Position numbers and translations under genes: made by a program. Of a stretch of 64,000 nt of DNA, positions 1-17,619 are shown one piece after another. The notes under the pieces are model-generated. The model saw nothing but the letters and a program-made list of their open reading frames with translations, was not told the origin of the DNA and did not search any database. Location of the stretch: positions 5,753 to 69,752 of the forward strand of contig CAZEAB010000001.1 of the NCBI GenBank assembly GCA_964510085.1, written 5' to 3'. The stretch comes from an uncultured Methanosarcinales archaeon. GTDB lineage: Archaea; Nanobdellota; Nanobdellia; Woesearchaeales; GW2011-AR9. The number at the start of each line of letters is the position of its first letter. Within the stretch, counting starts at the first letter, position 1.

Positions 1-1
1 T

Positions 2-2425
2 GTATCGTTTTCATCCATCATAGGAAAAGAATCAAAGAGTGATGATAAAACAATCATTTCAACAAAAGCTAACACTCTTAAAACATTACAACCTCTTTTA
101 CACAAATCCAAAATTGAAACACCTTTCATTATTTCAACAAGTGAATGGAAAACACAAAAAGAATTGGTTATTGATAAAATTCATAAACAATTCGTAAGTC
201 AAAAGATTGTTGTACGGAGTTCTGCGGTTTCAGAAGATACAGAGAATTGCTCAATGGCAGGATATTTTGAAAGTGTTTTAAATATTGATTCTTCATCAAA
301 AGAAGAAATTGAAAAAAGTATTACTACTGTGTTTAATTCTTATAAAGAAAAAAATGCAAATAGCTCATTTAATCAAGTTCTTATTCAGAAACAAACAACC
401 AATTCTGTAATAAGTGGAGTTGTTTTTACAAGAACTCTAGAAAAAAATGCACCTTATTATGTTATTAATTATGATGATTCTACCGGAAGTACGGATTCCG
501 TAACTTCTGGGAAAGAGAATAAATCAATGATGATATTACATAATGCTTCAACAATTCCGGATTCGATGAAACCTCTTATTGAGTCAATAAAAGAAATTGA
601 AGATTTAATCCCATTCATGCCGTTAGATATTGAATTCTCAATTAATAGTGAGGGTGTTGTAACCATCTTTCAAGTAAGACCTCTTGCAACAAATAAAGGA
701 ATTGAGATTAAAGATGAAGAATTTTATGATTTAACAAAAGGGATTAATAGTAAAGTGAGAGACTTAATGCAACCTGTTTCACATTTACAAGGCCAGAGTA
801 ATATTCTTGCCGACATGCCTGATTGGAACCCGGCTGAGATTATTGGTGATAAACCAAACCTTTTAGATTATTCTTTATATGACTACATTATAACAAACAC
901 GGCTTGGCATGAGGCGCGAACGTCTCAAGGATATTATAATGTGGCTCCAGCAAAATTAGTTGAGAGAATTGGCAATAAACCGTTTGTAAATGTAAGAAAC
1001 ACATTCAATTCTTTTATTATTTCTTCTATTCCACAGGAGTTACATACAAAATTGGTTGAGTTTTCAATTAATAAGTTAAAGAATAACCCTCATCTTCAAG
1101 ATAAAGTTGAGTTTGAAATTCTATTTACTTGTTATGATCTTACTTTCAATCAACGAGCTGACGAATTACGAAAAAATGAGTTTTCTGAAGAAGAAATCTC
1201 TATTTTAAGAGAAAAACTTCATGAATTTACCAACAATACTATTCAAAAAAGTTCATCTTCTATTGTAAGAGACTTAAATGAAATTAAGAGTTTGGAAGAA
1301 ATAAGAATTTCTATAAATAATACAAATCTAAACACAATTGAAGAGAAAATACGTGCTGTTCAAACACTCCTTGACTCTTGCAAAGAAAAGGGAACAGTCC
1401 AATTTTCAAGGCTAGCTAGGTTAGGATTTATTGCTAAAACCCTTCTTCGAGGATTTGTTCATCAGAAGGTTATTTCTTCTGAAGAGTTTAATGTCATTTA
1501 TAATTCAATTAATACCGTTGCAACAGAAATAAGTGAAGATTTCAAGAAAATTGGAAGACAAGAAATTTCAAAAGATATGTTCCTTAAAAAATATGGGCAT
1601 CTCAGACCAGGAACGTATAATATAACCTCCCCGCGATATGATAAAAATCCAAATTTGTTAGCACAAAGTCAATGGGTGGGTGATAGAAGTAATAACAATC
1701 AACCAATACTTACTACGTTTGAAGAAAAGTTTGATAGAATCTTGAAAGAAGAGAAGTTTGCAATTTCCGGAAAGGAATTTATTGAATTTGTTCAGAAAGC
1801 AACAGAAGCAAGAGAGAAAGCAAAATTTGAGTTCACAAAAAACCTTAGTGATGCTTTAGAGCTACTTGCAGATGCAGGACATTCATTAGGATTTACAAGA
1901 GAAGAGATTTCTAAATTAGACATTAATGATATACTTGAATCGAAAGAAGTGTCTGCGGAGGAAATAATAACAAACTGGAAACAGTTAATTTCGGAAGAAG
2001 AGAAAAGACAAAAAATTGGTCATCTTATTGAACTTCCTTCTATCATCAAAGATGTTTCTTCATTAGAAACAATACAACATTACATTGCAAGACCAAATTA
2101 TATTACTCAGAAAAAGATTCATGGAAAAGCTATCAACATAACACAAATGGACAATAAGAACATTCCAGAAATTGAGGGGAACATAGTAGTGTTAGAGAAT
2201 GGAGATCCTGGATTTGATTGGATTTTTACTCGAAATCCGGCAGGGCTTATTACAAAATATGGGGGGATTGCATCACATATGTCTATTAGATGTGCAGAAT
2301 TTGGAATACCTGCAGCCATAGGTTGTGGGGAAACAATATTTAGCAAAATCAAAGATGCAGAAAAAATTTTATTAGATTGTAGTGAAAGGAAAATTATGAG
2401 AGATGAAAACATAAAATGTTTGTAG
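2..2425 (+). CDS. PEP-utilising / pyruvate-phosphate-dikinase-like phosphotransferase (candidate L-glutamine kinase, Cj1418-like); 5' end probably outside the window
   Basis: The frame is open from base 2, with no stop and no ATG before the TTG at 164. The upstream residues (..TKANTLKTLQPLL..) already resemble the start of a PPDK_N ATP-grasp domain. 'VVRSSAVSEDTENCSMAGYFES' nucleotide-binding motif; C-terminal swivelling phosphohistidine motif 'GGIASHMSIRCAEFGIPAAIGCG'. Confidence 0.8.
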   Translation, partial: VSFSSIIGKESKSDDKTIISTKANTLKTLQPLLHKSKIETPFIISTSEWKTQKELVIDKIHKQFVSQKIVVRSSAVSEDTENCSMAGYFESVLNIDSSSKEEIEKSITTVFNSYKEKNANSSFNQVLIQKQTTNSVISGVVFTRTLEKNAPYYVINYDDSTGSTDSVTSGKENKSMMILHNASTIPDSMKPLIESIKEIEDLIPFMPLDIEFSINSEGVVTIFQVRPLATNKGIEIKDEEFYDLTKGINSKVRDLMQPVSHLQGQSNILADMPDWNPAEIIGDKPNLLDYSLYDYIITNTAWHEARTSQGYYNVAPAKLVERIGNKPFVNVRNTFNSFIISSIPQELHTKLVEFSINKLKNNPHLQDKVEFEILFTCYDLTFNQRADELRKNEFSEEEISILREKLHEFTNNTIQKSSSSIVRDLNEIKSLEEIRISINNTNLNTIEEKIRAVQTLLDSCKEKGTVQFSRLARLGFIAKTLLRGFVHQKVISSEEFNVIYNSINTVATEISEDFKKIGRQEISKDMFLKKYGHLRPGTYNITSPRYDKNPNLLAQSQWVGDRSNNNQPILTTFEEKFDRILKEEKFAISGKEFIEFVQKATEAREKAKFEFTKNLSDALELLADAGHSLGFTREEISKLDINDILESKEVSAEEIITNWKQLISEEEKRQKIGHLIELPSIIKDVSSLETIQHYIARPNYITQKKIHGKAINITQMDNKNIPEIEGNIVVLENGDPGFDWIFTRNPAGLITKYGGIASHMSIRCAEFGIPAAIGCGETIFSKIKDAEKILLDCSERKIMRDENIKCL

Positions 2426-3075
2426 CAATCTCCTTACGGCAAGAAAAGAATAAACATGGCAATTCCGTAGATGTGCTTGAATCAGCCTACACCACATTCT
2501 TCAATAATATGGGGATTACATTAATTCCAATCCCTAACGATACTCAAAATGTGAAAAAACTTTTAGAATCAATTCCTATTAAGGGCATTATTCTTTCTGG
2601 TGGGAACGATATTAACCCGACATCCTTTGGAGAAGAAGTTCAAGAAGGTCTTTCGCTTTCACTGAGAAGAGATCTAGTTGAAACAGAATTATTAAACATT
2701 GCAATTGAAAAAAAGTTGCCGGTTCTTGGAATCTGTCGAGGTATGCAATTTATTAATACGTTTTTTGGAGGAAAAGTAACCGATTTGCGAAAAAGGTATT
2801 CCCACTTGCCTAGTAAAAATCATCAAATTACAATAACAGCAAAGCAAGACCTTTTTGGAACAGAATCTTCAGTAAATTCTTATCATAACTGGGGAATTAC
2901 TCAGACTGAATTAGCAGAACCTCTCAAGATATTTGCAAAAAATGGAGAGATTATAGAGGGAATTTATCATCCTACTCTCCCGATTATAGGAATTCAATGG
3001 CATCCTGAACGTACTAGCCCAGATGAAGAATTAAATAAGAAAATAATAAAGTTTATTGTCGAGCATAATGCTTAA
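2416..3075 (+). CDS. Peptidase C26 / class-I glutamine-amidotransferase-like gamma-glutamyl hydrolase (Cj1417-like candidate)
   Basis: Nucleophile-elbow motif 'GICRGMQFIN' and 'IQWHPE' His/Glu motif. The start overlaps the preceding stop by 10 nt. Confidence 0.8.
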   Translation: MFVAISLRQEKNKHGNSVDVLESAYTTFFNNMGITLIPIPNDTQNVKKLLESIPIKGIILSGGNDINPTSFGEEVQEGLSLSLRRDLVETELLNIAIEKKLPVLGICRGMQFINTFFGGKVTDLRKRYSHLPSKNHQITITAKQDLFGTESSVNSYHNWGITQTELAEPLKIFAKNGEIIEGIYHPTLPIIGIQWHPERTSPDEELNKKIIKFIVEHNA

Positions 3076-3922
3076 GTGTGTCCATATTAAGATCCATTTG
3101 AGTTAAGTCTAATGAACCATTATCTTGCCTTGAGAACACTGCAGATTTGATTTTTTCATTATCTGTGTAAACATGCAACATTACACCACCGCCCATCCCA
3201 TAAGCACCACCTGCATTCTCAAAAAGCTCATTGGCATCTTTGCCTAAACCTTTTGCTAAAATAGCTGTAATTATCTCTAAATTTGGTTGATGTGTCGCTG
3301 AAAGAACAACATCATATTGTAATAAAGCTGGAATCAATTGTTGTAATGCTCTGTCTGCAACTGTTTTAGGATGTTCAGATCTTGAATCTCCTTCAAAACC
3401 TTTTTGGACCATCCACCTATAACCTGGAAAATCAGGATTAACTGTCTTAGAATATGCTTGCCCAACTAATTCATTAGCCCCATCTGGTTCTCCTTGTGAA
3501 TTAAGATATATAGTTTCAGCTAAACCACTAGCATGCTCAAAATCTGTGATAGCATGTAGACCATCTTCTGATAAGATTCTCTTTCCATCATGTGTAAGGT
3601 TATCTAAATCTACTCCTAAAACTGTCCTAGCATGTTCTCTCGCCATCCCTAAAAACATGTGTCGTGCAGTTTCATCTGCTCTTGCTAAAGGTGATGGGGC
3701 AATTAAAACTGAAGAAACACTATCAGGTAGATATAATTCTGAACCCATTTGTTCTGCCTTAGCATATTCACTTGCAACAAGATGAGCCTTCTTATCTGGG
3801 TGAACTCCATTTCCTAAAAAAGCACGTTCACCTTCTCCACCTAAAACTGCTGTAAATGGACCAACTAATAAAGAATCTCTTGCTGCTAAATGTCTTCTTA
3901 AATGTAATACGTGTTCTCTCAT
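3053..3922 (-). CDS. Histidine-phosphatase (phosphoglycerate-mutase-like) superfamily protein
   Basis: N-terminal 'LRRH', 'SPLARADETA' (SPLxRAxxTA-like) and 'SATHQPNLE' second-His motif. Amino-acid composition (G/A/H/L-rich, few K/N/I) differs from neighbouring genes. Confidence 0.55.
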   Translation of the reverse strand: MREHVLHLRRHLAARDSLLVGPFTAVLGGEGERAFLGNGVHPDKKAHLVASEYAKAEQMGSELYLPDSVSSVLIAPSPLARADETARHMFLGMAREHARTVLGVDLDNLTHDGKRILSEDGLHAITDFEHASGLAETIYLNSQGEPDGANELVGQAYSKTVNPDFPGYRWMVQKGFEGDSRSEHPKTVADRALQQLIPALLQYDVVLSATHQPNLEIITAILAKGLGKDANELFENAGGAYGMGGGVMLHVYTDNEKIKSAVFSRQDNGSLDLTQMDLNMDTLKHYARQ

Positions 3923-4005
3923 ATTACCTTATTTCGTAACTTTCTTTAAAAAGACTTCTGCTATTTTCATAAACAATTTAAACTCAAGTTTAAATCAAAC
4001 AACCC

Positions 4006-4791
4006 ATGAAAGCAATAATCCTTGCAGCAGGCATGGGAACTCGATTAGGGAAATACACTGAAAATCTTCCTAAATGTATGCTAAATTTTGCTGGAAAAAC
4101 TATTCTTGAAAGACAAGTGGAAACTCTTAGAAATGCTGGTATTACAGATATCACAATTGTAAAAGGATATATGCCAGAGGAAATAAATATTTTCGGAACA
4201 AAAACGTACATTAACAATGATTACAAGAATACAAACATGGTAGAAACACTTTTTTGTGCTGAGGAAGAGATGAATGAAGATATTCTTGTATGTTATGCCG
4301 ATATTATTTACGAACCAAAAGTGTTACAAAAAGTAATAGAAAGTACTGCAAAAGTTGGAGTTGTGGTTGACACAGATTATTGGGATTATTGGAGCGCAAG
4401 AGCTGACAATCCTGAAGAAGATATGGAGAGTCTTGTTATAGAAAACAACAAGATTATTGATCTTGGTAACACTACATGTTCAAAAGAAGAAGCAGAAGTG
4501 AGATATGTTGGATTAATTAAATTCTCTAAAGAGGGAATAGATGTATTAAAACGAGTATATCATGAGAATAAAGTAAGACATTTTCATGTAAATGAACCTT
4601 GGTTACGTTCAAAATCATTTAAGAAAGCATATATGACTTGTATGATACAAGCAATAATTAATTCTGGACAAGATGTAACACCAATCACTACTCAAAGAGG
4701 TTGGTTAGAGTTTGATACTGTTGAAGATTACGAAAGATATTCTTCTTGGAAAGAACAGAATACCTTAAATCGTTTTATTGGTGGTATTTAA
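4006..4791 (+). CDS. Nucleotidyltransferase (LicC / cytidylyltransferase-like; Cj1416-like candidate)
   Basis: N-terminal 'MKAIILAAGMGTRLG' NTP-transferase signature; about 260 aa, single domain. Confidence 0.8.
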   Translation: MKAIILAAGMGTRLGKYTENLPKCMLNFAGKTILERQVETLRNAGITDITIVKGYMPEEINIFGTKTYINNDYKNTNMVETLFCAEEEMNEDILVCYADIIYEPKVLQKVIESTAKVGVVVDTDYWDYWSARADNPEEDMESLVIENNKIIDLGNTTCSKEEAEVRYVGLIKFSKEGIDVLKRVYHENKVRHFHVNEPWLRSKSFKKAYMTCMIQAIINSGQDVTPITTQRGWLEFDTVEDYERYSSWKEQNTLNRFIGGI

Positions 4792-4877
4792 ACTTCTTTT
4801 TCACAACGTTTTTAAACGTTTTAAATCAAAAAATGAAATATTGTAATTGAAAAAATAACAGAGGAGTTATAAAAAAA

Positions 4878-7124
4878 GTGGCGAAAAAAACTGAAATAAT
4901 TGTTACTCTTGGTCCATCAACTAATAAGGAAGAAGATCTTCGAAAATTAAAGGATAAAGGAGTAAATTTTGTAAGAGTCAATATGTCTCATTCTTCTTTA
5001 GAAGATATGGAGTATTTTATGAAATTAGCTAAAAAGGTAGGTATACCTTTTGTAGTTGATTCACAAGGATCACAAGTAAGAACAGGAGATTTAAAAGAAA
5101 ATCAAATTAAACTTCAAGAAAATGATGTTGTTAAGATATATACAACTGAAATTGTTGGAGATAAAGAAGGAATGTGTCTCAAACCTGTTTCAGTAGTTCC
5201 CCAATTAGAAATTGGAGACTTAATTCATATTGATTTTGATTCAGTCACATTAAGAATTTCTGATATTTCAACAATTAATGAAGGTTATATTATAGCAAGA
5301 ACTATTACTGGTGGAACTTTAGGGAAAAACAAAGCAATTATCGTTGATACCTCTTCTCAGAAACCAATTGTGTTACCAACATTGTCAGAGAAGGATTATG
5401 GTGCAATCCAACTTGGTTTGAAGTATGGTGTAGGACACATTGCAGCATCTTTTATGAGATCAGGGAAAGCTGTTGATGAAGTCAGAAACGCAACTCAGAA
5501 TACTATGAAGATTATTTCTAAAGTAGAATGCATAGATGGACTAGAAAATCTTAATGAAATAATTGATAGATCTGATTATTTACTTATTGATAGAGGTGAT
5601 TTAAGTAAAGAGATTCCTATTGAAAAAATTCCTTTTACTCAAAAAATTATTCTTAACAGAGCTAGAAAAAAAAATACTGGGGTATTTGTTGCTACAAATT
5701 TGTTAGAATCTATGACAAATAATAGAATGCCTACTAGAGCTGAAGTTCATGATGTCATTAATACAATTATTGATGGTGCTACTGGATTGGCCTTAGCTGG
5801 AGAAACAGCTATAGGAAAATATCCTTTATCTTGTGTAAATATGATTAACAAATTAATAAAACATGCACAACTAGCTATTGATGTTGATGAAATAAGAGAG
5901 AAAGAAGATGCATTTGTAAATAAATTGGAAGAGAATAATTATCTCTTAGATTTTAATATGTCTTCTTCGTTAATCCCACCTCATGGAGGTAAATTAGTAA
6001 GTCGGGTTGCGAAGAAAGAATATGACACCTCAAACATGCCTACAGTTGTTTTAGATGACAACAGACAGAGAGATGTTGAACAGATTGGTATTGGAACCTA
6101 TAGTCCTATTGAAGGTTTCATGAATAAAAATGCATTTCAATCTGTTGTAAATGACATGCGATTACCAAATGGATTGCCTTGGCCTTTACCGATATATTTA
6201 GACGTGCCTGAGAACAAAGCAGATGAATTATCAATTGGACAGGATGTTGCTTTGTTAGATCATTCTGGTAACACTATGGCTATACTTCATTTAAGTGAAA
6301 AATACACCATAGATAAAGAAGATACATACAACAAAATGTATGGGACTAATGACTCTTCGCACCCAGGTGTAAGGAATATTATGAACATACATCCGATTAT
6401 TCTTGGAGGAAAAGTAACTCTTCTTCAAAGAAAAAAGAATGAAAACAAAGAATATGAAATAACACCAAAACAATCAAGAAGATTATTTGAAGAGAGGGGT
6501 TGGTCAAAAGTTGTTGGTTTCCACACTCGAAATGTCATTCATAAAGGGCATGAATTTATTCAAATAAATGCAATGGAAGAGAACAATTGTGATGGGTTAT
6601 TTGTACATCCTGTTGTTGGGAAGAAGAAAACGGGAGATTTTAATGCAAAATATATCATCAAATCTTATGAATTGATGAATAAAAATCATTACCCTAAAAA
6701 TAGAGTTCTATTTGGAACGTTCTCTACATATTCTCGTTATGCAGGTCCAAGAGAAGCTCTTTTCACAGCACTTTGTCGTAAGAATTTTGGGTGTAGCCAT
6801 TTTATCGTTGGAAGAGACCACACGGGCGTAGGTAGTTTTTACCATCCAAAAGCATCACACAATATCTTTGATAGATTTCCAGATTTAGGAATTACTCCAG
6901 TTAAATTTGACAATGTATTTTATTCTGAGAAATCACAATCACATGTGCATGAAATGGATGACGACACTCATGAAGAAACAGAGAAATTACATGTAAGTGG
7001 AACTCAAGCTAGGAAAATGTTTGAATCTGGAGAAAAACCCCCTGAATGGTTCATGAGACCGGAGATTTCTGAGATGATAGTGGGTTATGTTAATAAAGGC
7101 GAAGAGGTCTTTGTAAAAGAATGA
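4878..7124 (+). CDS. Fusion protein: pyruvate-kinase barrel domain (N) + sulfate adenylyltransferase / ATP sulfurylase (C)
   Basis: N-terminal half has PK motifs: 'IVTLGPS', 'VRVNMSHSS', 'SQGSQVRTG', 'ISKVECIDGLENL', 'IDRGDLSKEIP', 'MPTRAEVHDV', 'AGETAIGKYP'. C-terminal half has ATP-sulfurylase motifs: 'GFHTRNVIHKGHEF', 'YAGPREALFTALCRKNFGCSHFIVGRDHTGVG'. GTG start. Confidence 0.85.
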   Translation: MAKKTEIIVTLGPSTNKEEDLRKLKDKGVNFVRVNMSHSSLEDMEYFMKLAKKVGIPFVVDSQGSQVRTGDLKENQIKLQENDVVKIYTTEIVGDKEGMCLKPVSVVPQLEIGDLIHIDFDSVTLRISDISTINEGYIIARTITGGTLGKNKAIIVDTSSQKPIVLPTLSEKDYGAIQLGLKYGVGHIAASFMRSGKAVDEVRNATQNTMKIISKVECIDGLENLNEIIDRSDYLLIDRGDLSKEIPIEKIPFTQKIILNRARKKNTGVFVATNLLESMTNNRMPTRAEVHDVINTIIDGATGLALAGETAIGKYPLSCVNMINKLIKHAQLAIDVDEIREKEDAFVNKLEENNYLLDFNMSSSLIPPHGGKLVSRVAKKEYDTSNMPTVVLDDNRQRDVEQIGIGTYSPIEGFMNKNAFQSVVNDMRLPNGLPWPLPIYLDVPENKADELSIGQDVALLDHSGNTMAILHLSEKYTIDKEDTYNKMYGTNDSSHPGVRNIMNIHPIILGGKVTLLQRKKNENKEYEITPKQSRRLFEERGWSKVVGFHTRNVIHKGHEFIQINAMEENNCDGLFVHPVVGKKKTGDFNAKYIIKSYELMNKNHYPKNRVLFGTFSTYSRYAGPREALFTALCRKNFGCSHFIVGRDHTGVGSFYHPKASHNIFDRFPDLGITPVKFDNVFYSEKSQSHVHEMDDDTHEETEKLHVSGTQARKMFESGEKPPEWFMRPEISEMIVGYVNKGEEVFVKE

Positions 7125-7639
7125 ATAATGGAAGAGTGTTGTGGTTTACCGGATTAAGTGGGTCTGGAAAGACCACTATCTCTTTAAAATTACGTGAAGA
7201 ACTTGAGAATAAAGGACATAGTGTTTCTATATTAGACGGAGACGTTCTTAGAGAAGAGTTTGAGGAAAAACTTGGTTTCTCTCGAGAAGACATTAAAAAA
7301 AATAATGAACGAATTTCTCAACTTGCTCGTAAACATGCAGAATCACATGATATAGTTCTTGTTCCAATTATTTCTCCGTATCAAGAAGATAGAAAGAATG
7401 CTAGAGATGTTATTGGTTCAAATTTTATGGAAGTGTTCATTAATTCATCACTTAACGAATGCATTAAAAGAGATGTTAAAGGACTTTACAAAAAAGCGTT
7501 AGGTGGGGAGATAGATAATTTTATTGGAATTGCTGAATCTAATCCCTACGAAATACCGCTTAATCCTGAAATTGAAGTGACAACAGAAGGAAAAGAAGTT
7601 GAAGAAAGTGTTCAAGATATACTAAAAAGATTATCTTAG
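7121..7639 (+). CDS. cysC: Adenylylsulfate (APS) kinase family protein
   Basis: P-loop 'WFTGLSGSGKTTIS', 'LDGD' and 'ISPY' motifs; 4-nt ATGA overlap with the sulfurylase fusion. The family also includes the cytidine diphosphoramidate kinase Cj1415. Confidence 0.85.
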   Translation: MNNGRVLWFTGLSGSGKTTISLKLREELENKGHSVSILDGDVLREEFEEKLGFSREDIKKNNERISQLARKHAESHDIVLVPIISPYQEDRKNARDVIGSNFMEVFINSSLNECIKRDVKGLYKKALGGEIDNFIGIAESNPYEIPLNPEIEVTTEGKEVEESVQDILKRLS

Positions 7640-7657
7640 GATAGCTATTAAGATAAA

Positions 7658-8565
7658 TTATTCTTTACGTGCAAGAATTACTGTGCTATTTCCAATTTTT
7701 CGAAGTAATCGCCCTTTGCCAGAATCAACCTTCTTTTGAAGATATCTATCTAAAGCATGAAAAAATGAATAAAATATCTTGCTTTTTTTACTTAAGTATC
7801 CTGCACCTTGTGCACTAATAACATTAAGATGTCTTCCTAGTAATGTGTTAAGCCTCTTATATGACCATGCATTTTTCTTTACAAAACCAACAGATTTGTG
7901 ATCTTTATAGTACTTATATTTTTTTGTGATGAATTTTGAAAAAGGACTTAATGAAAATGTTATAAGAAGTGCTGGTTGCAATAAAATTGTGTCTTGCCAT
8001 CTGAATTCATAACGTCGGTTTGAAAGAACATAATAAAGAGACCTAGCCAGCTTAAGTGGTCCATCTAAACTACTAATACCAAACATATTACGTTGACCAA
8101 GAATAAAATGGCCCTTTTTCTTAAGAACGCGAGTAGATTCTAAAACACAACGCCCTGGTTTTTCAAGATATTGCATGAAGCCAAGTCCAATTACACAATC
8201 AAAACTTTCGTCAGGAAATGGTAATTCTTCAACATTTCCTTCAACAAATTTATAGGTCCCTTCTGATTTGATTGAAGCACAGTTTATTCGAGCAATATCA
8301 AGAAGTTTTTGTGATACATCTATACCAACAACAGAATATCCTCTTTGTAAAATTTTTGCCGAAGTAACTCCTGCACCACAACCAAGGTCTAATATTTTTG
8401 CTCCTTTTGGTAATGAAAGGGAATCGAAATACTGAAGTAATTTATTTCACGAGCTCTTAATCTGTTTCCATTATAATTATCTTGCTGATAAAAGTAATCC
8501 CATTGATTCAAATTAATTTCATTGTTCCACTTGTAAACAGAACGATCTAATTGGTTATACCCCAT
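7658..8565 (-). pseudogene. Class-I SAM-dependent methyltransferase interrupted by a 1-nt frameshift near 8447
   Basis: My translation upstream of the listed ORF gives '..KLLQYFDSLSLPKGAKILDLGCGAGVTS..VEELPFPDESFDCVIGLGFMQYLEKPG..', in frame with ORF 7658..8176. That stretch has no ATG and is closed by a TGA at 8447-8449. The natural N-terminus 'MGYNQLDRSVYKWN..RAREI' (ATG at 8565) lies in another frame. Confidence 0.7.
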
Positions 8566-8788: not shown

Positions 8789-9601
8789 ATGATGAATTGG
8801 AAAGAGCTAAAGTATGCATTTAGGGTGTACACACCAAAAAGTATCCTTTTTAACATGGCTTCAATAATTACAAGTGATTTTGTAATTGTATCCTTTCAAA
8901 AATGTGGAAAAACATGGGTACGAGTTATGCTTTCAAAGATTCTTCAGGAAAAATATAACATTAAGAATATTAAACTAAATCTTCAAGAAATGACTTGGTT
9001 TACAAAAGCACCAAACATTCTTATCTCTCATGGCGGAAGTACAAAAGATAATAATAAAATTAAGTTTGAGAAAATATTTAGAAACAAGAAAAAAATTCTT
9101 CTTTGTAGAGATCCACGAGATATTGTAGTTTCATTATTTCATGGTTCTAGAACTAGAGATAAAGTATATGATGGTGACAATATCTCTACATTTATACGAG
9201 ACCCTGCATGTGGTTTTCCAAAAATTATTGCCTTTATGAACAAATGGGCAGAAGAATATCAAAAAAGACCACAAGATTTTATTAGAGTAAGATATGAAGA
9301 TCTCAAAATTGATACAAAAAGTGAATTACAAAAAATGACACAATTTATGGGTATTAACGCGTCAGAAGAACTCTTACATAAAACGGTAGAGTTTGGTTCC
9401 TTTCAGAATATGAGAAAAATGGAAATGAAAGAAGAAATTAATGATTATAGAATGAAATCAGGGGACAAAAATGATCCAAACTCATTCAGAACACGTAAAG
9501 GAAAAGTAGGAGGATATAAGGACGAACTTTCACAAGAAGATCAAGATTATATTAATAATCAAGTGAAAGAAAACCTTGACAGATTTTATGGATATCACTA
9601 A
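8789..9601 (+). CDS. Sulfotransferase-fold protein (PAPS-dependent family)
   Basis: 5'-phosphosulfate-binding loop 'QKCGKTWVRVMLS' (PKSGTTW-like) and 3'-phosphate-binding 'RDPRDIVVSLFH' motif. Confidence 0.8.
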   Translation: MMNWKELKYAFRVYTPKSILFNMASIITSDFVIVSFQKCGKTWVRVMLSKILQEKYNIKNIKLNLQEMTWFTKAPNILISHGGSTKDNNKIKFEKIFRNKKKILLCRDPRDIVVSLFHGSRTRDKVYDGDNISTFIRDPACGFPKIIAFMNKWAEEYQKRPQDFIRVRYEDLKIDTKSELQKMTQFMGINASEELLHKTVEFGSFQNMRKMEMKEEINDYRMKSGDKNDPNSFRTRKGKVGGYKDELSQEDQDYINNQVKENLDRFYGYH

Positions 9602-9615
9602 ATTTTAAAGCCAGA

Positions 9616-11067
9616 TTATTTTTTACTTACTACGTTCGCATTTTTATTAAATATGCTCAGCAAGGTCTTTTTGTCTTCAGATGAAATCTCTTTAATCAAA
9701 AACAATATTCCAAAGTAAAGAATTAAGTAGAGAGCCATTCCAAGAATTACATTATTTAAACTAAAATAATGAGACATAATACCTATAATAACGCAGCTAA
9801 ACAATATATTTCTCAAAGATTTTTGTGGGATTATTCTTCCAAAGAAACGATAGATTACAACAATTGAAATTAAAAGACTGATTAAAGATCCAATTAACAA
9901 AGAAATTCCTGCTCCAATCATCCCTTGCATTGGAATTATAGTATAACTTATCAACACGGTAAAGATTAGAGACACTATGGATATTTTCATTGCTGTTCCT
10001 GGTTTTCCCACCGCAATAAAAAATGAGGCAAAAACCATAACGACAGAAAAAATAAAAAATGCCAAAACTAAGTAAGGAAGTACAGAAGATGCTGGCTGGA
10101 ATACATTAGAATAAAGCAATTCTATTATTGATTTTGAGTTTGTTATAGTAAGAATCACAAACGGTGCTAAAACAAGAAACATATAACGAAAAGATTTTTT
10201 AATATATTTTCTAACTAAGGGCATGTTTTTTGCTTCAAATGCGCTAGAGATAGAAGGGATCATAGTAAATACCAATGCTGAAGCAAGAGTAAAACTTACT
10301 CTTGCTAACGTCGTTGCTGAAGTATAATACCCAATAAGTGCATCATCTACCCAATAATGTTTTAAGAGGAACAATGGAATTTCCAGATTAACTGTGTTGA
10401 AAACATAAAATAAAGAAATAGGTACAGAGAAAAGAAACAGTTTTTTAGTATTTAATGCTAGCGGAGATTTATTCCTTCTAATTCTAAATATATAATATAT
10501 GGCTACAATCGTAGCTAGTAAAGGACCTAAAGCATATCCTGTTAATGCGCCAAGTATCCCATATCCAAAGTAAACTAGTAAAAGAGCAATAATTAATTTC
10601 ATTATAGAATGAAATGCTTCTAATAATGCTTGAGTTCTAAACCTTCTCTTACCTCCAAGATAACCCTTAGTAATAACTACATATGCACTCAAAGGTATCA
10701 AAATAAATGAAGAATAAAACATATTATTTGTTAAACTTGGGTCATTGAAATATCCACTTAACAAACCAGAAAAAAGATAGTAAAGAGCGATACAGATTGC
10801 TGTTAAGATGAACTGTAAATGTAAACCTGATTTCAGAATACCAACATCATTCCATTTTCCTTCTGAAACATATTTTGATACCGACCTGTTTACTCCTGTA
10901 GCAAAAATTGTCTTTGCGATTAGAAAAAAAGATAGTATTAAACCAAAATCACCATAAATAGAAGGCCCCATTAACCTTGCTAAGGCTATATGTACCCCAT
11001 AACCAGATAAAGAGGTTACAAACTGTGCAAGCATAAGAAAAAAAGTACCCCTAACAACAACCCCCAT
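9616..11067 (-). CDS. Polysaccharide/oligosaccharide flippase (MOP/Wzx-like)
   Basis: 483 aa, about 12-14 hydrophobic segments, typical Wzx-like N-terminus; lies in the glycan operon. Confidence 0.7.
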   Translation of the reverse strand: MGVVVRGTFFLMLAQFVTSLSGYGVHIALARLMGPSIYGDFGLILSFFLIAKTIFATGVNRSVSKYVSEGKWNDVGILKSGLHLQFILTAICIALYYLFSGLLSGYFNDPSLTNNMFYSSFILIPLSAYVVITKGYLGGKRRFRTQALLEAFHSIMKLIIALLLVYFGYGILGALTGYALGPLLATIVAIYYIFRIRRNKSPLALNTKKLFLFSVPISLFYVFNTVNLEIPLFLLKHYWVDDALIGYYTSATTLARVSFTLASALVFTMIPSISSAFEAKNMPLVRKYIKKSFRYMFLVLAPFVILTITNSKSIIELLYSNVFQPASSVLPYLVLAFFIFSVVMVFASFFIAVGKPGTAMKISIVSLIFTVLISYTIIPMQGMIGAGISLLIGSLISLLISIVVIYRFFGRIIPQKSLRNILFSCVIIGIMSHYFSLNNVILGMALYLILYFGILFLIKEISSEDKKTLLSIFNKNANVVSKK

Positions 11068-11766
11068 TTATACAATCTCCGTGTTTTTTCTTAGTTGACG
11101 ATAAAATTTTAGAATTAAATCTCCTGGCAGTGCAACCAAATACACCCACAACGAATAATGGGGAAACCCTAACAAAGATGCCCAAAATAAAAAATTAAAC
11201 AAATACTCAATCCTAAGAACCATATACACCACTTTTTTCCACGATGATATATGCTGAGACTTTATTGAAAAATTCATGAAGTTATGGCGACTTTTCTCCG
11301 AATACCAAAGAGGATTTAAGGTAATTGCTTTATTTAGAAGAAAAAAAAATGCACAAGCTATACCAATAACAATGTAAATCAAGTCAGAAGTATATCTGGC
11401 ACAACCAATACCCAACATTATAAACATCAAAGGGTTTGCAACATAATGGCCAACATAGTCTAAGTATACTCCTAAATTGCTTTGTTGTTTACGAAACCTA
11501 GCCATGATCCCATCCGTACAATCTAGCACGAAAAACAATTGAAACAATAATACTGAAAGAAATATTGATTTTTTTGTTCCAAAAATAGAAATACAAGAGG
11601 ATAAAATTTGTCCAATTATCCATATTACTGTTACTTGATTTGCAGTTATATTTGTAAATAAAAATATTTTTGCAGGGTAATATGCCAAGTAATCAACTAG
11701 AGAGTATAATAAATCTCCTCTTTTAACATATGTTTTTTCTTTAATTTCTTGTATTGAAAAAGTCAT
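11068..11766 (-). CDS. CDP-alcohol phosphatidyltransferase family membrane protein
   Basis: 'LDCTDGIMARF...GVYLDYVGH' matches DxxDGxxAR...GxxxD; the last Asp position reads His. Multi-pass membrane protein. Confidence 0.7.
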   Translation of the reverse strand: MTFSIQEIKEKTYVKRGDLLYSLVDYLAYYPAKIFLFTNITANQVTVIWIIGQILSSCISIFGTKKSIFLSVLLFQLFFVLDCTDGIMARFRKQQSNLGVYLDYVGHYVANPLMFIMLGIGCARYTSDLIYIVIGIACAFFFLLNKAITLNPLWYSEKSRHNFMNFSIKSQHISSWKKVVYMVLRIEYLFNFLFWASLLGFPHYSLWVYLVALPGDLILKFYRQLRKNTEIV

Positions 11767-11767
11767 T

Positions 11768-12433
11768 TTATCCTCTCATTACTAGATTTTTTACTAAGCC
11801 CATATATTTCTTTTCAAAACCAATAGTACAATTTCCTTGCTCTAGGTGGAATTGAACTGCTAAAATTTTTTTATTCAAATTAAAAATGCCTTCAATTTCT
11901 CCATCATCTGAAAAAATGAATGGGGTTAACCCACTTCCCAAAACATCAATTACTTTTCTGTGGTAACTATTAACGCTAGCTTTATTTATTCCTAACAAAC
12001 CTGTGATAGTTACATTATGTATATTAATATGTTTTCTAAAGACAAACCTCTTTGCTAGTGCAGATGTTAGAAATTTAATATTTCGCTTGCTATGGTTCTC
12101 ATTCCATTTAAGAGTACCTCCAAAAAATCCGTTTATACTCCACATCCCACAACAAACACCAAATAGTGGGAGGTTATTTTTAATAGCAAAGTCTATTGCT
12201 TTTAATTCAAATTTTCTAATTTCTTTAGTATAATATTGGTAACCTCCTGAGATTAGTAGTGCTTTAATACCAAGACTCTTAAAGAAATTATTAAAATCAA
12301 TATCTTCATGAAATGGGATCATTATTAATTCATAGCCATAACGTTTCCAAAAATCAACATATTTCTTTTCAATACAAAAAAAAGAACCGTCCTTATTAGA
12401 CATGTGCCTTGGAGTTATTGCTATCTTAATCAT
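11768..12433 (-). CDS. Second peptidase C26 / class-I GATase-like hydrolase
   Basis: 'GVCCGMWSINGFFGG' nucleophile elbow and 'VQFHLE'. I prefer the ATG at 12433 (MIKIAITP..), which removes the overlap with the upstream gene. Confidence 0.7.
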   Translation of the reverse strand: MIKIAITPRHMSNKDGSFFCIEKKYVDFWKRYGYELIMIPFHEDIDFNNFFKSLGIKALLISGGYQYYTKEIRKFELKAIDFAIKNNLPLFGVCCGMWSINGFFGGTLKWNENHSKRNIKFLTSALAKRFVFRKHINIHNVTITGLLGINKASVNSYHRKVIDVLGSGLTPFIFSDDGEIEGIFNLNKKILAVQFHLEQGNCTIGFEKKYMGLVKNLVMRG

Positions 12434-12965
12434 TTTTTTTACATATAAATAAAAGGTTATTTGCAAAATAGTGTCTAAAAATATTGTTAATAAAATTTTT
12501 TGACTTACGCATCCCCTTAAATTTTTTTATAATTCTATAATTATAACATGAAATTAAATAACTTAATGTATGCTCACAATACCAACAGGTGTGAAATTTA
12601 TTACATTTAAACGGGAGATAGCCAATTGATCTTGCATTTGGAGTTACAATAACCAATAACCCATCTTTTTTTAGATGACGAGACATATTTTCTAAGAATT
12701 TCCCTGGGTTGTGGATATGTTCAATTACATCTCCTGCAATAATAACATCAAATCTTTTTTTAAATGAAATGTTCTCTGCATTTCCTTTAATAATCTCTGG
12801 AGAGTTGCTTTCAATATCAACACCAACTACAGAATTTGCTCTCATTTTTATTTTTGAGTACAATGTCTTTGGTTTTATCAATGAGCCTTGCTCAGCACAA
12901 CTTCCAATATCTAAAACATTTTTTCCTTTTACAATATTTAGTATATAGTCTTCACAACTTTTCAT
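12426..12965 (-). CDS. Class-I SAM-dependent methyltransferase
   Basis: 'VLDIGSC' motif I-like, 'VIIAGDVIEHIHNP' motif, 'GLLVIVTPN'. Confidence 0.7.
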   Translation of the reverse strand: MKSCEDYILNIVKGKNVLDIGSCAEQGSLIKPKTLYSKIKMRANSVVGVDIESNSPEIIKGNAENISFKKRFDVIIAGDVIEHIHNPGKFLENMSRHLKKDGLLVIVTPNARSIGYLPFKCNKFHTCWYCEHTLSYLISCYNYRIIKKFKGMRKSKNFINNIFRHYFANNLLFICKKND

Positions 12966-16001: not shown

Positions 16002-16739
16002 TTATTCTTCCAAATACTCTATTTCTTCCTCAGAAACTCGTCTCACGGGCTTCTCAAACTTCAGTTCTTCATATGCCTGTGCTACTAATCCTGGAGTTCT
16101 TCCTATAATAAAAATACCTTTACCTAAAAGAGGGTCAAATCCCCAGTCAGATAATAAAATGGCAATTAATCCATCAACATTCATGTGAATTTTCTTACCC
16201 TTAACTTCTTCAAATGCTTGCTCTATTGCATCTTTGAAATGCAGATTCTGAGATGCATATCCTATTTCATTCATGGTTTTTAACAGCCATTGAACTCGAG
16301 GATCTCCTTGTTTGTAATGTTTATGACCAATCCCATAAATAACTTCACGATTGGTTAACATTTCTTTAAATTTTGATAATAGTTCATCTTTTGATACATC
16401 TTTAAGGGACGCAATCATCTTCATAGCATTTTCCATAGCACCACCATGATAATTTCCAATGCTTAATATCCCACCACCTACAGCTGTATTAAGTGAATTT
16501 CCACCAGAAGCTACAAATCGTGTAGCCATGCTTGAAGTCGTACCCATTCCATGATCAATAACACATGTAAGAATTTTTTCAAATAAGATACTCTCCTTTT
16601 CATTCGGCTTCCTTCCAGATAACTCTAAGAAAACTGCGTCTGTAAACCTACCTTGAATTAAACTAGACAATTTCTCTCCTCGAATGTCTACATCATTCTC
16701 TTCTATCTTTGATATTCTTGTTTTAAATTGCATTTTCAA
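16002..16739 (-). CDS. Citrate-synthase-fold protein of the citryl-CoA lyase / ATP-citrate-lyase C-terminal type
   Basis: 'HGGAMENA', 'GIGHKHYKQGDPRV', 'NVDGLIAILL', 'GRTPGLVAQAYEE'. At 245 aa it is shorter than a true citrate synthase. Confidence 0.65.
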   Translation of the reverse strand: MKMQFKTRISKIEENDVDIRGEKLSSLIQGRFTDAVFLELSGRKPNEKESILFEKILTCVIDHGMGTTSSMATRFVASGGNSLNTAVGGGILSIGNYHGGAMENAMKMIASLKDVSKDELLSKFKEMLTNREVIYGIGHKHYKQGDPRVQWLLKTMNEIGYASQNLHFKDAIEQAFEEVKGKKIHMNVDGLIAILLSDWGFDPLLGKGIFIIGRTPGLVAQAYEELKFEKPVRRVSEEEIEYLEE

Positions 16740-17619
16740 GCGCTTCTTTCATTAACTTACCAACATTGTGATGTACTTCTGCTATAATAACCCCTGCTTC
16801 TTTAAGAAGTTTTACTTTATTTTTTCGAGTTCCTTTATCTCCCTCAATAATAGCGCCAGCATGTCCCAAGGAAACATTATGAATTTTATACTTCTCAACA
16901 AATACTCCTGAGATAAAAGCCACAATAGGTTTTGTAAATTTTTTCTTCATCAAATACGCTGCAAGTTCTTCTTCAGCAGTTCCACCAATTTCCCCAAATA
17001 AAACTATCCCTTTCGTTTCTGGATCTTGTTCAAATTCATCCATTAATTCAGCAAACGTTGTTCCCATAATAATATCTGCACCAATCCCTAATACAGTAGA
17101 TTGTCCTAACCCTGCTTGTTTCAAAACAAGTGATGTTTCACACGCCATTCCACCACTTCGTGAAATCACTCCAATTGAACCAGGAGTAAACGCAATCTTT
17201 GACTTCCCACCTGCAATGGCACCACATTTTGATTTTCCAACGGAATAAATACCAACAGATGTTGCACCAATAATCCTACTTTCTTTCTGCTCTGCTAATG
17301 CAAAACAATATGCCATATCATGAACTGGAATATTTTCAGTAATAATATTAATTAACTTGATACCTGCTTCAATTGCTTCAACAATTGCCCCTTTTGCAAA
17401 TTTTGGTGGTACTAAAATAACTGTTGCATCAACTTCTGGAGCTTCTGAAATACTGTTAAATACAGGAACACCAAACACTTCCTGCCCACCTTTCCCGGGG
17501 GTTACTCCTGCAATAACCTTTGAACCTGCTTGTAACATCTCATCGCACGTTCTCTGTCCTTGCTTTCCAGTAATTCCCTGAATAAGGAATCTTGTATTTT
17601 CATTAATCAGTATTGCCAT
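16723..17619 (-). CDS. Succinyl-CoA synthetase alpha / citryl-CoA synthetase small-subunit-like (CoA-binding, phosphohistidine)
   Basis: 'FLIQGITGKQG', 'GVTPGKGG', 'SRSGGMA', and the phosphohistidine loop 'LGHAGAII'. Confidence 0.8.
   Translation of the reverse strand: MAILINENTRFLIQGITGKQGQRTCDEMLQAGSKVIAGVTPGKGGQEVFGVPVFNSISEAPEVDATVILVPPKFAKGAIVEAIEAGIKLINIITENIPVHDMAYCFALAEQKESRIIGATSVGIYSVGKSKCGAIAGGKSKIAFTPGSIGVISRSGGMACETSLVLKQAGLGQSTVLGIGADIIMGTTFAELMDEFEQDPETKGIVLFGEIGGTAEEELAAYLMKKKFTKPIVAFISGVFVEKYKIHNVSLGHAGAIIEGDKGTRKNKVKLLKEAGVIIAEVHHNVGKLMKEALENAI

Follow-up and report, generated by a model that had tools for sequence, protein, structure and literature searches.

Gene content of the locus

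The window analysed here, a 64,000-nucleotide stretch of DNA from a tiny, uncultured Woesearchaeota-like DPANN archaeon, opens with a truncated PPDK-like gene, followed by genes for a C26 hydrolase, a LicC-like nucleotidyltransferase, sulfate-activating enzymes and membrane proteins (Table 1). The positions given in a first-pass annotation of this DNA were borne out save for two corrections, concerning a methyltransferase and the first gene; that annotation did not mention the second C26 paralogue, the CDP-alcohol phosphotransferase-like gene, the sulfotransferase or the histidine-phosphatase-fold gene. Since the kinase, C26 and LicC-like transferase genes at the start of the window lie side by side in 59 of 68 related loci, the arrangement is far above chance.

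Table 1. Features of the locus, with positions in the window
Feature	Position	Strand	Basis
Cytidylyltransferase-like/L-glutamine-kinase fusion, Cj1418 family (C-terminal 807 codons of 951 aa)	2..2425	+	
C26/class-I GATase hydrolase, Cj1417-like (gamma-glutamyl-CDP-amidate hydrolase)	2416..3075	+	Peptidase_C26 E = 2.7e-33
Histidine-phosphatase (phosphoglycerate-mutase-like) fold protein, conserved, DPANN-only	3053..3922	-	AF2 + Foldseek
LicC-like nucleotidyltransferase, putative CTP:phosphoglutamine cytidylyltransferase (Cj1416 equivalent)	4006..4791	+	NTP_transf_3, 1jyk
Pyruvate-kinase barrel + PUA_2 + ATP sulfurylase fusion, 748 aa	4878..7124	+	Domain and NCBIfam matches
Canonical APS kinase, CysC type	7121..7639	+	TIGR00455, tree, motifs
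Class-I SAM methyltransferase pseudogene, frameshift near 8443-8447	7658..8565	-	Methyltransf_11, two-frame tblastn
PAPS-type sulfotransferase	8789..9601	+	Sulfotransfer_1 E = 3e-26, motifs
Wzx/MurJ-type polysaccharide flippase	9616..11067	-	Polysacc_synt E = 2.3e-22
CDP-alcohol phosphotransferase-like membrane protein	11068..11766	-	PF01066 E = 2.9e-9
Second C26/GATase paralogue	11768..12466	-	Peptidase_C26 E = 6e-19
179-aa class-I SAM methyltransferase	12426..12965	-	Methyltransf_23 E = 4.7e-14
ATP-grasp/citrate-binding protein + C-terminal inositol-monophosphatase (CysQ-like) domain	17603..19579	-	Inositol_P E = 7e-50

The glutamine-kinase, C26 and transferase trio

The first ORF, described in the first-pass annotation as a three-domain PPDK-like enzyme, has the location claimed for it and carries PPDK_N and PEP-utilizers domains but is open at the window start. 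The complete gene on the parent contig (locus L093) begins 431 nt upstream of the window edge and encodes 951 aa, its first ~143 codons upstream of the window holding a PF01467 cytidylyltransferase-like (CTL) domain with an HxGH motif, which resembles ethanolamine-phosphate and Fom1-type cytidylyltransferases. The profile-HMM comparison proposed in that annotation gave an end-to-end match to the glutamine-kinase model NF004508 (838 bits, cutoff 501) versus at most 65 bits for the PEP synthase, PigC and Rph models, and an identity as PEP synthase or rifampicin phosphotransferase was rejected on these scores. The phospho-histidine loop GGIASH is invariant across the family, members of which were found in no fewer than 414 GTDB species genomes, and a 91%-identical protein (P0001) carries the JGI label 'glutamine kinase'. 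On profile and motif grounds, we classify the PPDK-like protein as a member of the glutamine-kinase family. Other loci hold triple fusions of kinase, CTL and glutamine kinase, and L001 shows a fusion of the glutamine kinase with an APS-kinase-like domain.

The C26/GATase ORF was confirmed, together with its 10-nt overlap with the glutamine-kinase gene, directly downstream of which C26 genes lie in the 59 contiguous loci. Its best NCBIfam model is NF045546, with 98.7 bits, a score below the equivalog cutoff of 250 and inside the range of the C26 proteins of bacterial four-gene clusters (75-127 bits), and it has both a Cys (GICRGMQ) and a His-x-Glu (WHPE) motif. NF045546 is also the best NCBIfam model for the second C26 paralogue (63.6 bits; GVCCGMW and FHLE in the translation), which sits between the CDP-alcohol phosphotransferase and methyltransferase genes. 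The third member of the trio is, as annotated, LicC-like, with LicC (1jyk) as its top PDB match, and in some other loci it is fused with the C26 protein into one ORF. The trio occurs in DPANN, Nitrosopumilaceae, CPR, Planctomycetota, Leptospira, Firmicutes and Proteobacteria, including bacterial clusters that also have a Cj1415-type kinase and methyltransferases. Judged by NCBIfam models, database names and synteny (Cj1416 has no model), the three proteins look like orthologues of Cj1418, Cj1417 and Cj1416.

The histidine-phosphatase-fold gene, which adjoins the trio in seven loci, had no match in Pfam and NCBIfam searches, and its 33 homologues are all hypothetical proteins. The AF2 model (pLDDT 94) matched PGM-like phosphatases in a Foldseek search of the PDB (probability 1.0, E = 4e-7), and R10, H11 and H211 are invariant in the family; on this modelled fold, the protein may act as a phosphatase on some by-product of the pathway.

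Sulfation module, transferase and methyltransferases

The sulfurylase fusion matched the pyruvate-kinase (E = 2.9e-71), PUA_2 (E = 1.2e-46) and ATP-sulfurylase (E = 1.9e-78) domains and the sulfate adenylyltransferase model NF003166 (439 bits, cutoff 387), and it lies downstream of the trio also in L085, L086, L096, L097 and the bacterial L040. The first-pass annotation had listed the sulfurylase without the fused pyruvate-kinase barrel. Overlapping the stop of the sulfurylase fusion is the ORF of the only APS-kinase-like gene in the 64 kb. This kinase passed TIGR00455 (184.9 bits, cutoff 138.7) and failed PRK05541 (114.2 bits, cutoff 127), on which glutamine-kinase-linked kinases elsewhere score 141-185 bits; in a neighbour-joining tree it grouped with E. 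coli CysC and ATP-sulfurylase-linked kinases, and its LGFS and IISP motifs are intact. By these criteria it is a canonical APS kinase outside the Cj1415/PRK05541 subfamily. Thus, of the "full homolog set" of the Campylobacter pathway claimed previously, the Cj1418, Cj1417 and Cj1416 types hold but the kinase is of APS type, and while the coupling of a single kinase ORF to an ATP sulfurylase stands, its equivalence to Cj1415 does not.

The sulfotransferase can be aligned with SULTs of plants and animals in its 5'-PSB (QKCGKTW), 3'-PB (CRDPRDIVVSL) and RKGxxGG motifs. The ATP-grasp protein combines ATP-grasp_2, Citrate_bind and Inositol_P domains, and its region 17636-18406 is 42% identical to a stand-alone Inositol_P gene adjoining the sulfotransferase in L085; this CysQ-like domain is likely the PAP phosphatase of the sulfation module. 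The sulfation block recurs in L085, L086, L096 and L097, and from its gene content we conclude that kinase, sulfurylase fusion, sulfotransferase and CysQ-like domain make up a complete PAPS module.

The CDP-alcohol phosphotransferase-like protein has AF2299 (4o6m) as its top PDB match, and in its motif, DCTDGIMAR...GVYLDYVGH, His stands in place of the fourth signature Asp, a variant common to most linked CDP-alcohol phosphotransferases, including those of bacterial L044 and L045, where the gene directly follows the transferase. Such genes are overrepresented beside CTL-fused kinases (14/29 versus 2/23) and are anti-correlated with a nearby kinase, in counts that ignore phylogeny. An A. vitis plasmid operon has the order kinase-C26-transferase-LysE-CDP-alcohol phosphotransferase, in Vibrio a TagF-like CDP-dependent transferase takes the last enzyme's place, and a flippase adjoins the CDP-alcohol phosphotransferase in L084, L085, L096 and L099. 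The synteny expected in related genomes was found for the trio but not for the kinase, which is absent within 10 kb in 24 of the 29 CTL-fused loci. Since most archaeal relatives lack a nearby kinase and often have a CDP-alcohol phosphotransferase, we infer that this protein could transfer phosphoramidate directly; alternatively, the extra cytidylyltransferase domain might make a CDP-alcohol that serves as its substrate.

The methyltransferase gene next to the APS kinase was correctly placed and assigned to its family previously, but it lies on the minus strand and is frameshifted, so that residues 1-40 and residues 42-305 are read in different frames. Its C-terminal piece matched Methyltransf_11 (E = 9e-23), two-frame tblastn gave 48-49% identity to intact orthologues of 305/306 aa, and the broken sequence is 100% identical across three independent metagenome assemblies, all of which mark it, as read from the sequence, as a pseudogene. 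The 179-aa methyltransferase, also annotated previously, is a candidate O-methyltransferase; 32 loci, L001 among them, have a homologue of it close to the glutamine kinase.

Predicted pathway and alternatives

In Campylobacter, a rare phosphorus-nitrogen decoration of sugars depends on a donor that is made by four genes. The archaeal locus resembles this system in its Cj1418-, Cj1417- and Cj1416-type genes and differs from it in that the kinase belongs to the neighbouring sulfation pathway and the glutamine kinase has the extra N-terminal domain. Taken as a whole, the following explanation is probably correct: the window's first ~13 kb would be part of a surface glycan or lipid decoration island with two donor-making modules. 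The trio most likely makes cytidine diphosphoramidate (CDP-amidate), in what looks like a kinase-free variant of the known pathway. By orthology to Cj1418, Cj1416 and Cj1417, the glutamine-kinase domain would use ATP and a phospho-histidine to phosphorylate L-glutamine on its amide nitrogen, the LicC-like transferase would add CMP from CTP to give CDP-glutamine, and the C26 hydrolase would remove glutamate to leave CDP-amidate. The CDP-alcohol phosphotransferase-like protein would then place phosphoramidate directly on a lipid or sugar hydroxyl with release of CMP, and the 179-aa enzyme may O-methylate the product. In the second module, the fused sulfurylase would form APS and the APS kinase PAPS, which the sulfotransferase would consume while the CysQ-like domain clears PAP.

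A full Campylobacter-like pathway, in which a bifunctional APS kinase also 3'-phosphorylates CDP-amidate for a transferase that might be the sulfotransferase-fold protein, could be read from the adjacency of the four folds. The kinase slot of the block holds unrelated types (APS kinase, AAA_33, PRK05541), an AAA_33 kinase occurs once as a fusion with the sulfotransferase, L001 has its APS-kinase-like fusion, and L084 has a PRK05541-type kinase that overlaps the beginning of a sulfotransferase orthologue (62% identical) and lacks an ATP sulfurylase within 10 kb, an arrangement that would allow for a PAPS-like phosphoramidate donor in this clade. However, the window kinase is canonical by score, motifs and tree, the sulfurylase, CysQ-like domain and intact PAPS motifs account for both kinase and sulfotransferase, most CTL-fused loci have no kinase nearby, and bacterial kinase-type clusters have no sulfotransferase homologues, so we regard this pathway as unlikely here.

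We give similarly little credence to another CDP-linked head group, be it CDP-glutamine moved as phosphoglutamine or a different phosphorylated amide or amine, with a final decoration that is no phosphoramidate. The extra N-terminal domain makes the archaeal system no copy of the Campylobacter one, the C26 scores fall under the equivalog cutoff, and the second C26 paralogue, which shares an operon with the CDP-alcohol phosphotransferase, would fit hydrolysis after transfer; yet such hydrolysis would still yield a phosphoramidate, the NF004508 match is strong and end to end, and the same trio accompanies Cj1415-type kinases and methyltransferases in bacteria. That the likeness is superficial, the first protein being a PEP synthase or rifampicin phosphotransferase among unrelated housekeeping or glycan genes, draws on domains common to those enzymes and is effectively refuted by the model scores, by a match to PDB PEP synthases limited to the ~90-residue swivel domain, and by the synteny of the trio.

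The novelty claimed in the first-pass annotation was overstated, given the breadth of the family, its JGI naming and a 2024 preprint in which this pathway was predicted for the archaeal elements called Borgs; our literature search found no chemical evidence of P-N groups in archaea. Because a glutamine-kinase-family protein is syntenic with a C26 hydrolase and a LicC-like transferase, a phosphoramidate-type decoration is a reasonable prediction for this archaeon.

Genes predicted to make the phosphoramidate donor

The first-pass annotation had claimed that this glycan locus holds homologs of all four Campylobacter jejuni enzymes, Cj1415-Cj1418, that make the donor of O-methyl phosphoramidate (MeOPN). 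Domain matches confirmed the open reading frames that it had listed, namely the PPDK-like gene, the overlapping C26 gene, the NTP_transf_3 and APS_kinase genes and the shorter methyltransferase gene. Using family models, we found that the PPDK-like protein scored 837.9 bits with NF004508/PRK05849 (cutoff 501; model positions 4-786 of 789), which we take to be the family containing Cj1418 itself. The next best NCBIfam model gave 65.6 bits, and the models for PEP synthase, PigC and rifampicin phosphotransferase all stayed at about 65 bits or less, which separates the protein from the relatives it might have been confused with. Moreover, PEP synthases in the PDB align to it over the swivel domain only, the GGxASH phospho-histidine motif is invariant in the 9 diverse members compared, and JGI gives the label "glutamine kinase" to a 91%-identical relative (P0001) and to several further ones. 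By sequence, the PPDK-like protein is thus predicted to be a member of the L-glutamine kinase (Cj1418) family, EC 2.7.3.13.

Predicted features of the window, with their positions in nucleotides
Feature	Position	Strand	Remarks
Glutamine kinase	2-2425	+	Open at the window edge; PPDK_N and PEP-utilizers domains
C26 hydrolase	2416-3075	+	Peptidase_C26/GATase; 10-nt overlap with the glutamine-kinase gene
Histidine-phosphatase-fold protein	3053-3922	-	Conserved family, predicted structure
LicC-like transferase	4006-4791	+	NTP_transf_3 domain; LicC is the best PDB match
Pyruvate-kinase barrel, PUA_2 and ATP sulfurylase fusion	4878-7124	+	Domain matches
APS kinase	7121-7639	+	APS_kinase domain
Class-I methyltransferase pseudogene, 302 aa	7658-8565	-	Frameshift near 8443-8447
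Sulfotransferase	8789-9601	+	Intact PAPS-binding motifs
Flippase	9616-11067	-	Domain match
CDP-alcohol-phosphotransferase-like protein	11068-11766	-	PF01066, 37.9 bits (cutoff 22)
Second C26 paralogue	11768-12466	-	Abuts the CDP-alcohol phosphotransferase, overlaps the 179-aa methyltransferase
179-aa methyltransferase	12426-12965	-	Methyltransf_23
ATP-citrate-lyase-like or citryl-CoA-synthetase-like gene set	16002-19579	-	Within the glycan island
CysQ-like inositol-monophosphatase domain	17636-18406	-	Part of the ATP-grasp/citrate-binding protein
Fusion of CDP-alcohol phosphatidyltransferase, diacylglycerol-kinase catalytic and YegS C-terminal domains, 475 aa	26228-27655	-	Unusual lipid enzyme
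Four consecutive, tightly packed ORFs (541, 412, 432, 453 aa)	34359-39872	+	No Pfam match at E <= 0.001

Homologues of the glutamine kinase are 950-1000 aa long, with an additional PF01467 cytidylyltransferase-like (CTL) domain at the N-terminus. On the parent contig (ENA ERZ23498963 scaffold_83; 187 kb, identical to the window), the full gene has its start 431 nt before window position 1 and encodes 951 aa, an HxGH-motif domain coming first. The CTL domain resembles ethanolamine-phosphate cytidylyltransferase, the cytidylyltransferase domain of Fom1, and TagD. That this domain is the true equivalent of Cj1416, the LicC-like gene being unrelated, was rejected because the LicC-like gene is the sole transferase in unfused bacterial clusters and is kept in 48 of the 52 well-flanked loci. 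The LicC-like protein has the fold and the place in gene order of a CTP:phosphoglutamine cytidylyltransferase (Cj1416), which is its predicted function.

The best NCBIfam model for the C26 hydrolase is NF045546 (gamma-glutamyl-CDP-amidate hydrolase), at 98.7 bits under a cutoff of 250. Since C26 proteins from bacterial clusters with a Cj1415-type kinase score just 75-127 bits, the model appears narrow, and by this measure the archaeal protein is no further from it than they are. Its alignment contains the class-I GATase Cys-His-Glu triad with the GICRGMQ and WHPE motifs, and its position directly beside the glutamine kinase is conserved across related loci. Scanning one genome per GTDB species, we found relatives of the glutamine kinase in at least 414 species genomes, spanning DPANN, Nitrosopumilaceae, CPR, Planctomycetota, Omnitrophota, Leptospira, Firmicutes, Bacteroidota and Proteobacteria; the closest carry Woesearchaeota or Nanoarchaeota labels, and Campylobacter is absent among the best 80 loci, which were fetched. 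Of these 80 loci, 68 have enough downstream sequence, and in 59 of them the kinase, hydrolase and transferase genes (the trio) adjoin one another, so that a lack of synteny in related genomes, which the first-pass annotation had named as a refutation, does not count against the first three genes of the claimed set; in some loci the hydrolase and the transferase form a single fused ORF. The remainder of the window, with thermosome, HerA and HisRS genes, is consistent with an archaeal host.

Other genes surround the trio. The minus-strand ORF between the hydrolase and the transferase has no Pfam or NCBIfam match. Its 33 homologues, all hypothetical, are apparently confined to DPANN-type archaea and always lie within the glutamine-kinase cluster; R10, H11 and H211 are invariant, and the predicted structure (pLDDT 94) has a histidine-phosphatase (phosphoglycerate-mutase-like) fold. 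A spurious ORF was rejected on the strength of this conserved family and confident fold. The methyltransferase gene beside the APS kinase, taken as intact in the first-pass annotation, in fact lies on the minus strand and is frameshifted: residues 1-40 of intact orthologues match one reading frame and residues 42-305 a second one, and the gene is intact on the P0001 contig. Three assemblies from independent metagenomes (ENA ERZ23498963, JGI 3300009008 and JGI 3300007504) agree at 100% identity on the broken sequence, which makes an assembly error unlikely and argues for a real pseudogene. Upstream of the window, the parent contig (1-7100) encodes a GT2 protein, a fused 5-formyl-THF cyclo-ligase/methylene-THF dehydrogenase-cyclohydrolase, a formyltransferase, another GT2 and a PMT_2 glycosyltransferase, and these genes suggest that the glycan includes an N-formylated sugar; at 27 of the examined loci, Formyl_trans_N-like genes lie near the glutamine kinase. 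A search of the window for SGNH-like, sulfatase-like, TagF-like and AAA_33 kinase families found none.

The APS-kinase-family enzyme and the sulfation module

While models and synteny match three enzymes of the claimed set, the fourth, the kinase, proved to be of the canonical APS type when judged by TIGR00455, PRK05541 and an NJ tree. It is the single APS-kinase-like gene in the whole 64 kb. The protein passes TIGR00455 (184.9 bits, cutoff 138.7) and falls below the cutoff of PRK05541/NF004041 (114.2 bits against 127); its top model is PRK00889 at 190 bits, with TIGR00455 the second named at 185, and its top PDB matches are APS kinases at 117-137 bits. We also scored ten kinases adjoining glutamine kinases against PRK05541 and TIGR00455. 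PRK05541 was the best model, above its cutoff (141-185 bits), for six of the ten, which come from Leptospira, Omnitrophota, Peribacteria, Maridesulfovibrio, a Rhodospirillaceae MAG and the archaeal locus L028/L084, and all but one of which are under the TIGR00455 cutoff. In the NJ tree, glutamine-kinase-linked kinases form a separate clade, with LS(L/I)F in place of FISP and LGHT in place of LGFS, and the window kinase, which keeps LGFS and IISP, clusters with E. coli CysC and ATP-sulfurylase-linked kinases. We infer that Cj1415 belongs to the PRK05541 subfamily, which we delimit here by linkage to glutamine kinase; the window enzyme is predicted to be a canonical APS kinase (CysC) and not of the Cj1415 type. 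A third, divergent clade unites kinases of L024, L039 and L040 with the kinase domain of a DPANN relative (L001, 10001-13393), in which a 1130-aa triple fusion joins APS-kinase-like, CTL and glutamine-kinase domains; this clade is missing the ISP motif, and ATP sulfurylase was not seen in the 10 kb flanks of the fusion.

The neighbourhood accounts for such a kinase. The ATP sulfurylase exceeds its NCBIfam cutoff (439 bits against 387), and the APS-kinase gene overlaps its stop by 4 nt. By predicted function, the ATP sulfurylase, APS kinase, sulfotransferase and CysQ-like domain make up a complete sulfation pathway, so that all four activities of the PAPS pathway (sat, CysC, sulfotransferase, CysQ) are encoded in the window, and the APS kinase is best explained by this adjacent module. 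Consequently, the Campylobacter scheme is not simply transferable to this archaeon. The module departs from the standard pathway in its fusions, of ATP sulfurylase with a pyruvate-kinase barrel and of the CysQ-like domain with an ATP-citrate-lyase-like subunit, and in the non-homologous kinases that take the kinase slot in sister loci. The sulfation block is repeated in the sister loci L085, L086, L096 and L097, and an unrelated AAA_33 kinase can occupy the slot, once fused to the sulfotransferase.

Several features of this block were observed in passing. Beside the sulfotransferase, the kinase slot of sister loci holds a canonical APS kinase, a PRK05541-type or an AAA_33/KTI12-type enzyme (L084, 17251-18566; L085, 16693-17277; L097, 10036-11436; L099, 9194-10921), with an AAA_33-sulfotransferase fusion in L097 and a sulfotransferase-Inositol_P fusion in L099; a stand-alone Inositol_P gene also occurs beside the sulfotransferase in sister loci. 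The pyruvate-kinase barrel of the window lacks the C-terminal regulatory domain, and the PK-PUA_2-ATP-sulfurylase fusion, of which we know of no description, is found behind the trio at several loci of DPANN and at a single bacterial one (L040); local ATP regeneration by this fusion might pull the unfavourable sulfurylase reaction. In the citrate-lyase-like set, a 245-aa citrate synthase C-terminal domain and a 298-aa CoA-binding/ligase protein accompany an ATP-grasp_2 plus Citrate_bind protein that has the CysQ-like Inositol_P domain at its C-terminus.

A candidate route for phosphoramidate transfer

Co-occurrence was counted, for features within 10 kb, at the 52 loci flanked on each side by 5 kb or more. 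An APS-kinase-like gene accompanied 5 of the 29 CTL-fused glutamine kinases as against 13 of the 23 unfused ones (Fisher p 0.004), whereas a CDP-alcohol phosphotransferase accompanied 14 of 29 and 2 of 23, respectively (Fisher p 0.0025), both p values ignoring phylogeny. Independent bacterial clusters point the same way: in L044 and L045 the transferase is followed directly by a CDP-alcohol phosphotransferase, and the plasmids of Agrobacterium vitis and Vibrio alfacsensis described below pair the trio with other CDP-dependent transferases. When we looked for the PF01066 signature D1xxD2GxxAR...GxxxD3xxxD4 in the window protein, D1, D2, G, AR, G and D3 were present and D4 was replaced by His (DCTDGIMAR...GVYLDYVGH), a change common to most glutamine-kinase-linked CDP-alcohol phosphotransferases. 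This GxxxDxxxH subfamily adjoins glutamine-kinase clusters in archaea as well as in bacteria (L044, L045, L009, L028 and others), and a search outward from it recovered the same super-block wherever contigs were long enough.

In the reactions of CDP-alcohol phosphotransferases, the beta-phosphorus of the CDP-X donor is attacked and CMP leaves. Acting on CDP-amidate, such an enzyme would yield R-O-P(O)(O-)NH2 without any 3'-phosphorylation; this direct transfer is a tentative hypothesis, which we consider less likely than not. If CDP-glutamine were the donor instead, the second C26 paralogue would trim the product later, and its removal of glutamate after transfer is speculative. The fuller reading would be a kinase-independent branch, in DPANN and some bacteria, in which CDP-amidate or CDP-glutamine passes to the His-variant membrane enzyme and on to a phosphoramidate surface lipid or glycan, the branch being co-transcribed with the PAPS module in this clade; we consider it unlikely as a whole. 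Given such co-transcription, sulfation might extend to the same glycan, or even to the phosphoramidate nitrogen. Another route was suggested by L084, where a PRK05541-type kinase overlaps the start of the sulfotransferase and ATP sulfurylase is absent within 10 kb: the sulfotransferase-fold protein could be a general phosphoramidate transferase using 3'-phospho-CDP-amidate. We rejected this role because the sulfotransferase occurs in only 4 of about 80 loci, its PAPS motifs are all kept and its usual partners are ATP sulfurylase and CysQ; use of that donor by the sulfotransferase survives solely within a minor rival explanation.

Relation to known systems

In Campylobacter, MeOPN shapes interactions with phage and host. 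The window resembles the Campylobacter pathway in its glutamine kinase family (NF004508 above cutoff), the adjacent C26 hydrolase, the LicC-like transferase just downstream, the methyltransferases nearby and the setting in a surface-polysaccharide locus, the likeness to Cj1416-Cj1418 being judged by family models, database names and gene order and not by Campylobacter sequences. It differs in its archaeal host, in the N-terminal PF01467 domain, in having a canonical APS kinase within a PAPS module as its sole kinase in place of a PRK05541-type enzyme, and in the added CDP-alcohol-phosphotransferase-like and histidine-phosphatase-fold proteins. Bacterial clusters of Azospirillum sp. TSA2s (plasmid p2), Deltaproteobacteria Smac51 (plasmid) and Leptospira ilyithenensis encode trio proteins 31-46% identical to those of the window. 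However, their kinase is a PRK05541-type 'adenylyl-sulfate kinase' (141-185 bits), methyltransferases are present, and ATP sulfurylase, the CTL fusion and a CDP-alcohol phosphotransferase are absent; on the Azospirillum and deltaproteobacterial plasmids the kinase is thus of the Campylobacter-like type.

Two further plasmids have the trio without a Cj1415- or APS-type kinase. On Agrobacterium vitis pRvVAT039a, the trio, LysE and then a CDP-alcohol phosphatidyltransferase form one operon, although this enzyme keeps the canonical fourth Asp; the neighbours (L091, 4700-13100) are an aminoacyl-tRNA-ligase-related gene, a TauD dioxygenase and an asparaginase, and the region looks like a small-molecule cluster, perhaps for a phosphoramidate natural product, rather than a glycan locus. 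On Vibrio alfacsensis pYa108, a TagF-like CDP-glycerol glycerophosphotransferase comes after the trio, and sulfate adenylyltransferase (cysDN) is adjacent, of the CysDN and not the sat type. There (L087, 3700-14000), cysD, cysN and an SLC13 permease, with no cysC, are divergent from the cluster of a 966-aa glutamine-kinase fusion, a third, independent link of sulfate activation to this pathway.

The first-pass annotation had regarded the modification as undescribed in archaea. The basic idea is, however, not new, since a 2024 preprint on Borgs, extrachromosomal elements of the archaeon Methanoperedens, predicts in silico the equivalents of Cj1418, Cj1417 and Cj1416 in a glycoconjugate region (bioRxiv 10.1101/2024.11.05.622173), and the family is annotated automatically. 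The Borg cluster belongs to another lineage and is linked to PEP-mutase/phosphonate genes, and the accessible part of the preprint makes no mention of a sulfation module, a CTL fusion or a link to CDP-alcohol phosphotransferase (bioRxiv 10.1101/2024.11.05.622173). Our literature search found no paper linking the phosphoramidate pathway to DPANN, and no description of the CTL fusion, of the absence of a dedicated kinase, of an association with a CDP-alcohol phosphotransferase of the His variant, of the histidine-phosphatase-fold gene or of the repeated pairing with sulfate activation. A 2019 review reports chemical detection of O-methyl phosphoramidate in Campylobacter only.

Genes predicted to make the donor occur commonly among the ultrasmall archaea of DPANN and across many bacterial phyla, and they come in at least two architectures, a Campylobacter type with a PAPS-like 3'-kinase and a kinase-free type tied to CDP-dependent phosphotransferases. 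These loci supply concrete candidate enzymes for new phosphoramidate-transfer chemistry. If the prediction is true, P-N decorations would be a widespread, overlooked feature of microbial surfaces, present also on episymbiotic archaea, whose cell-cell contact relies on their surfaces.
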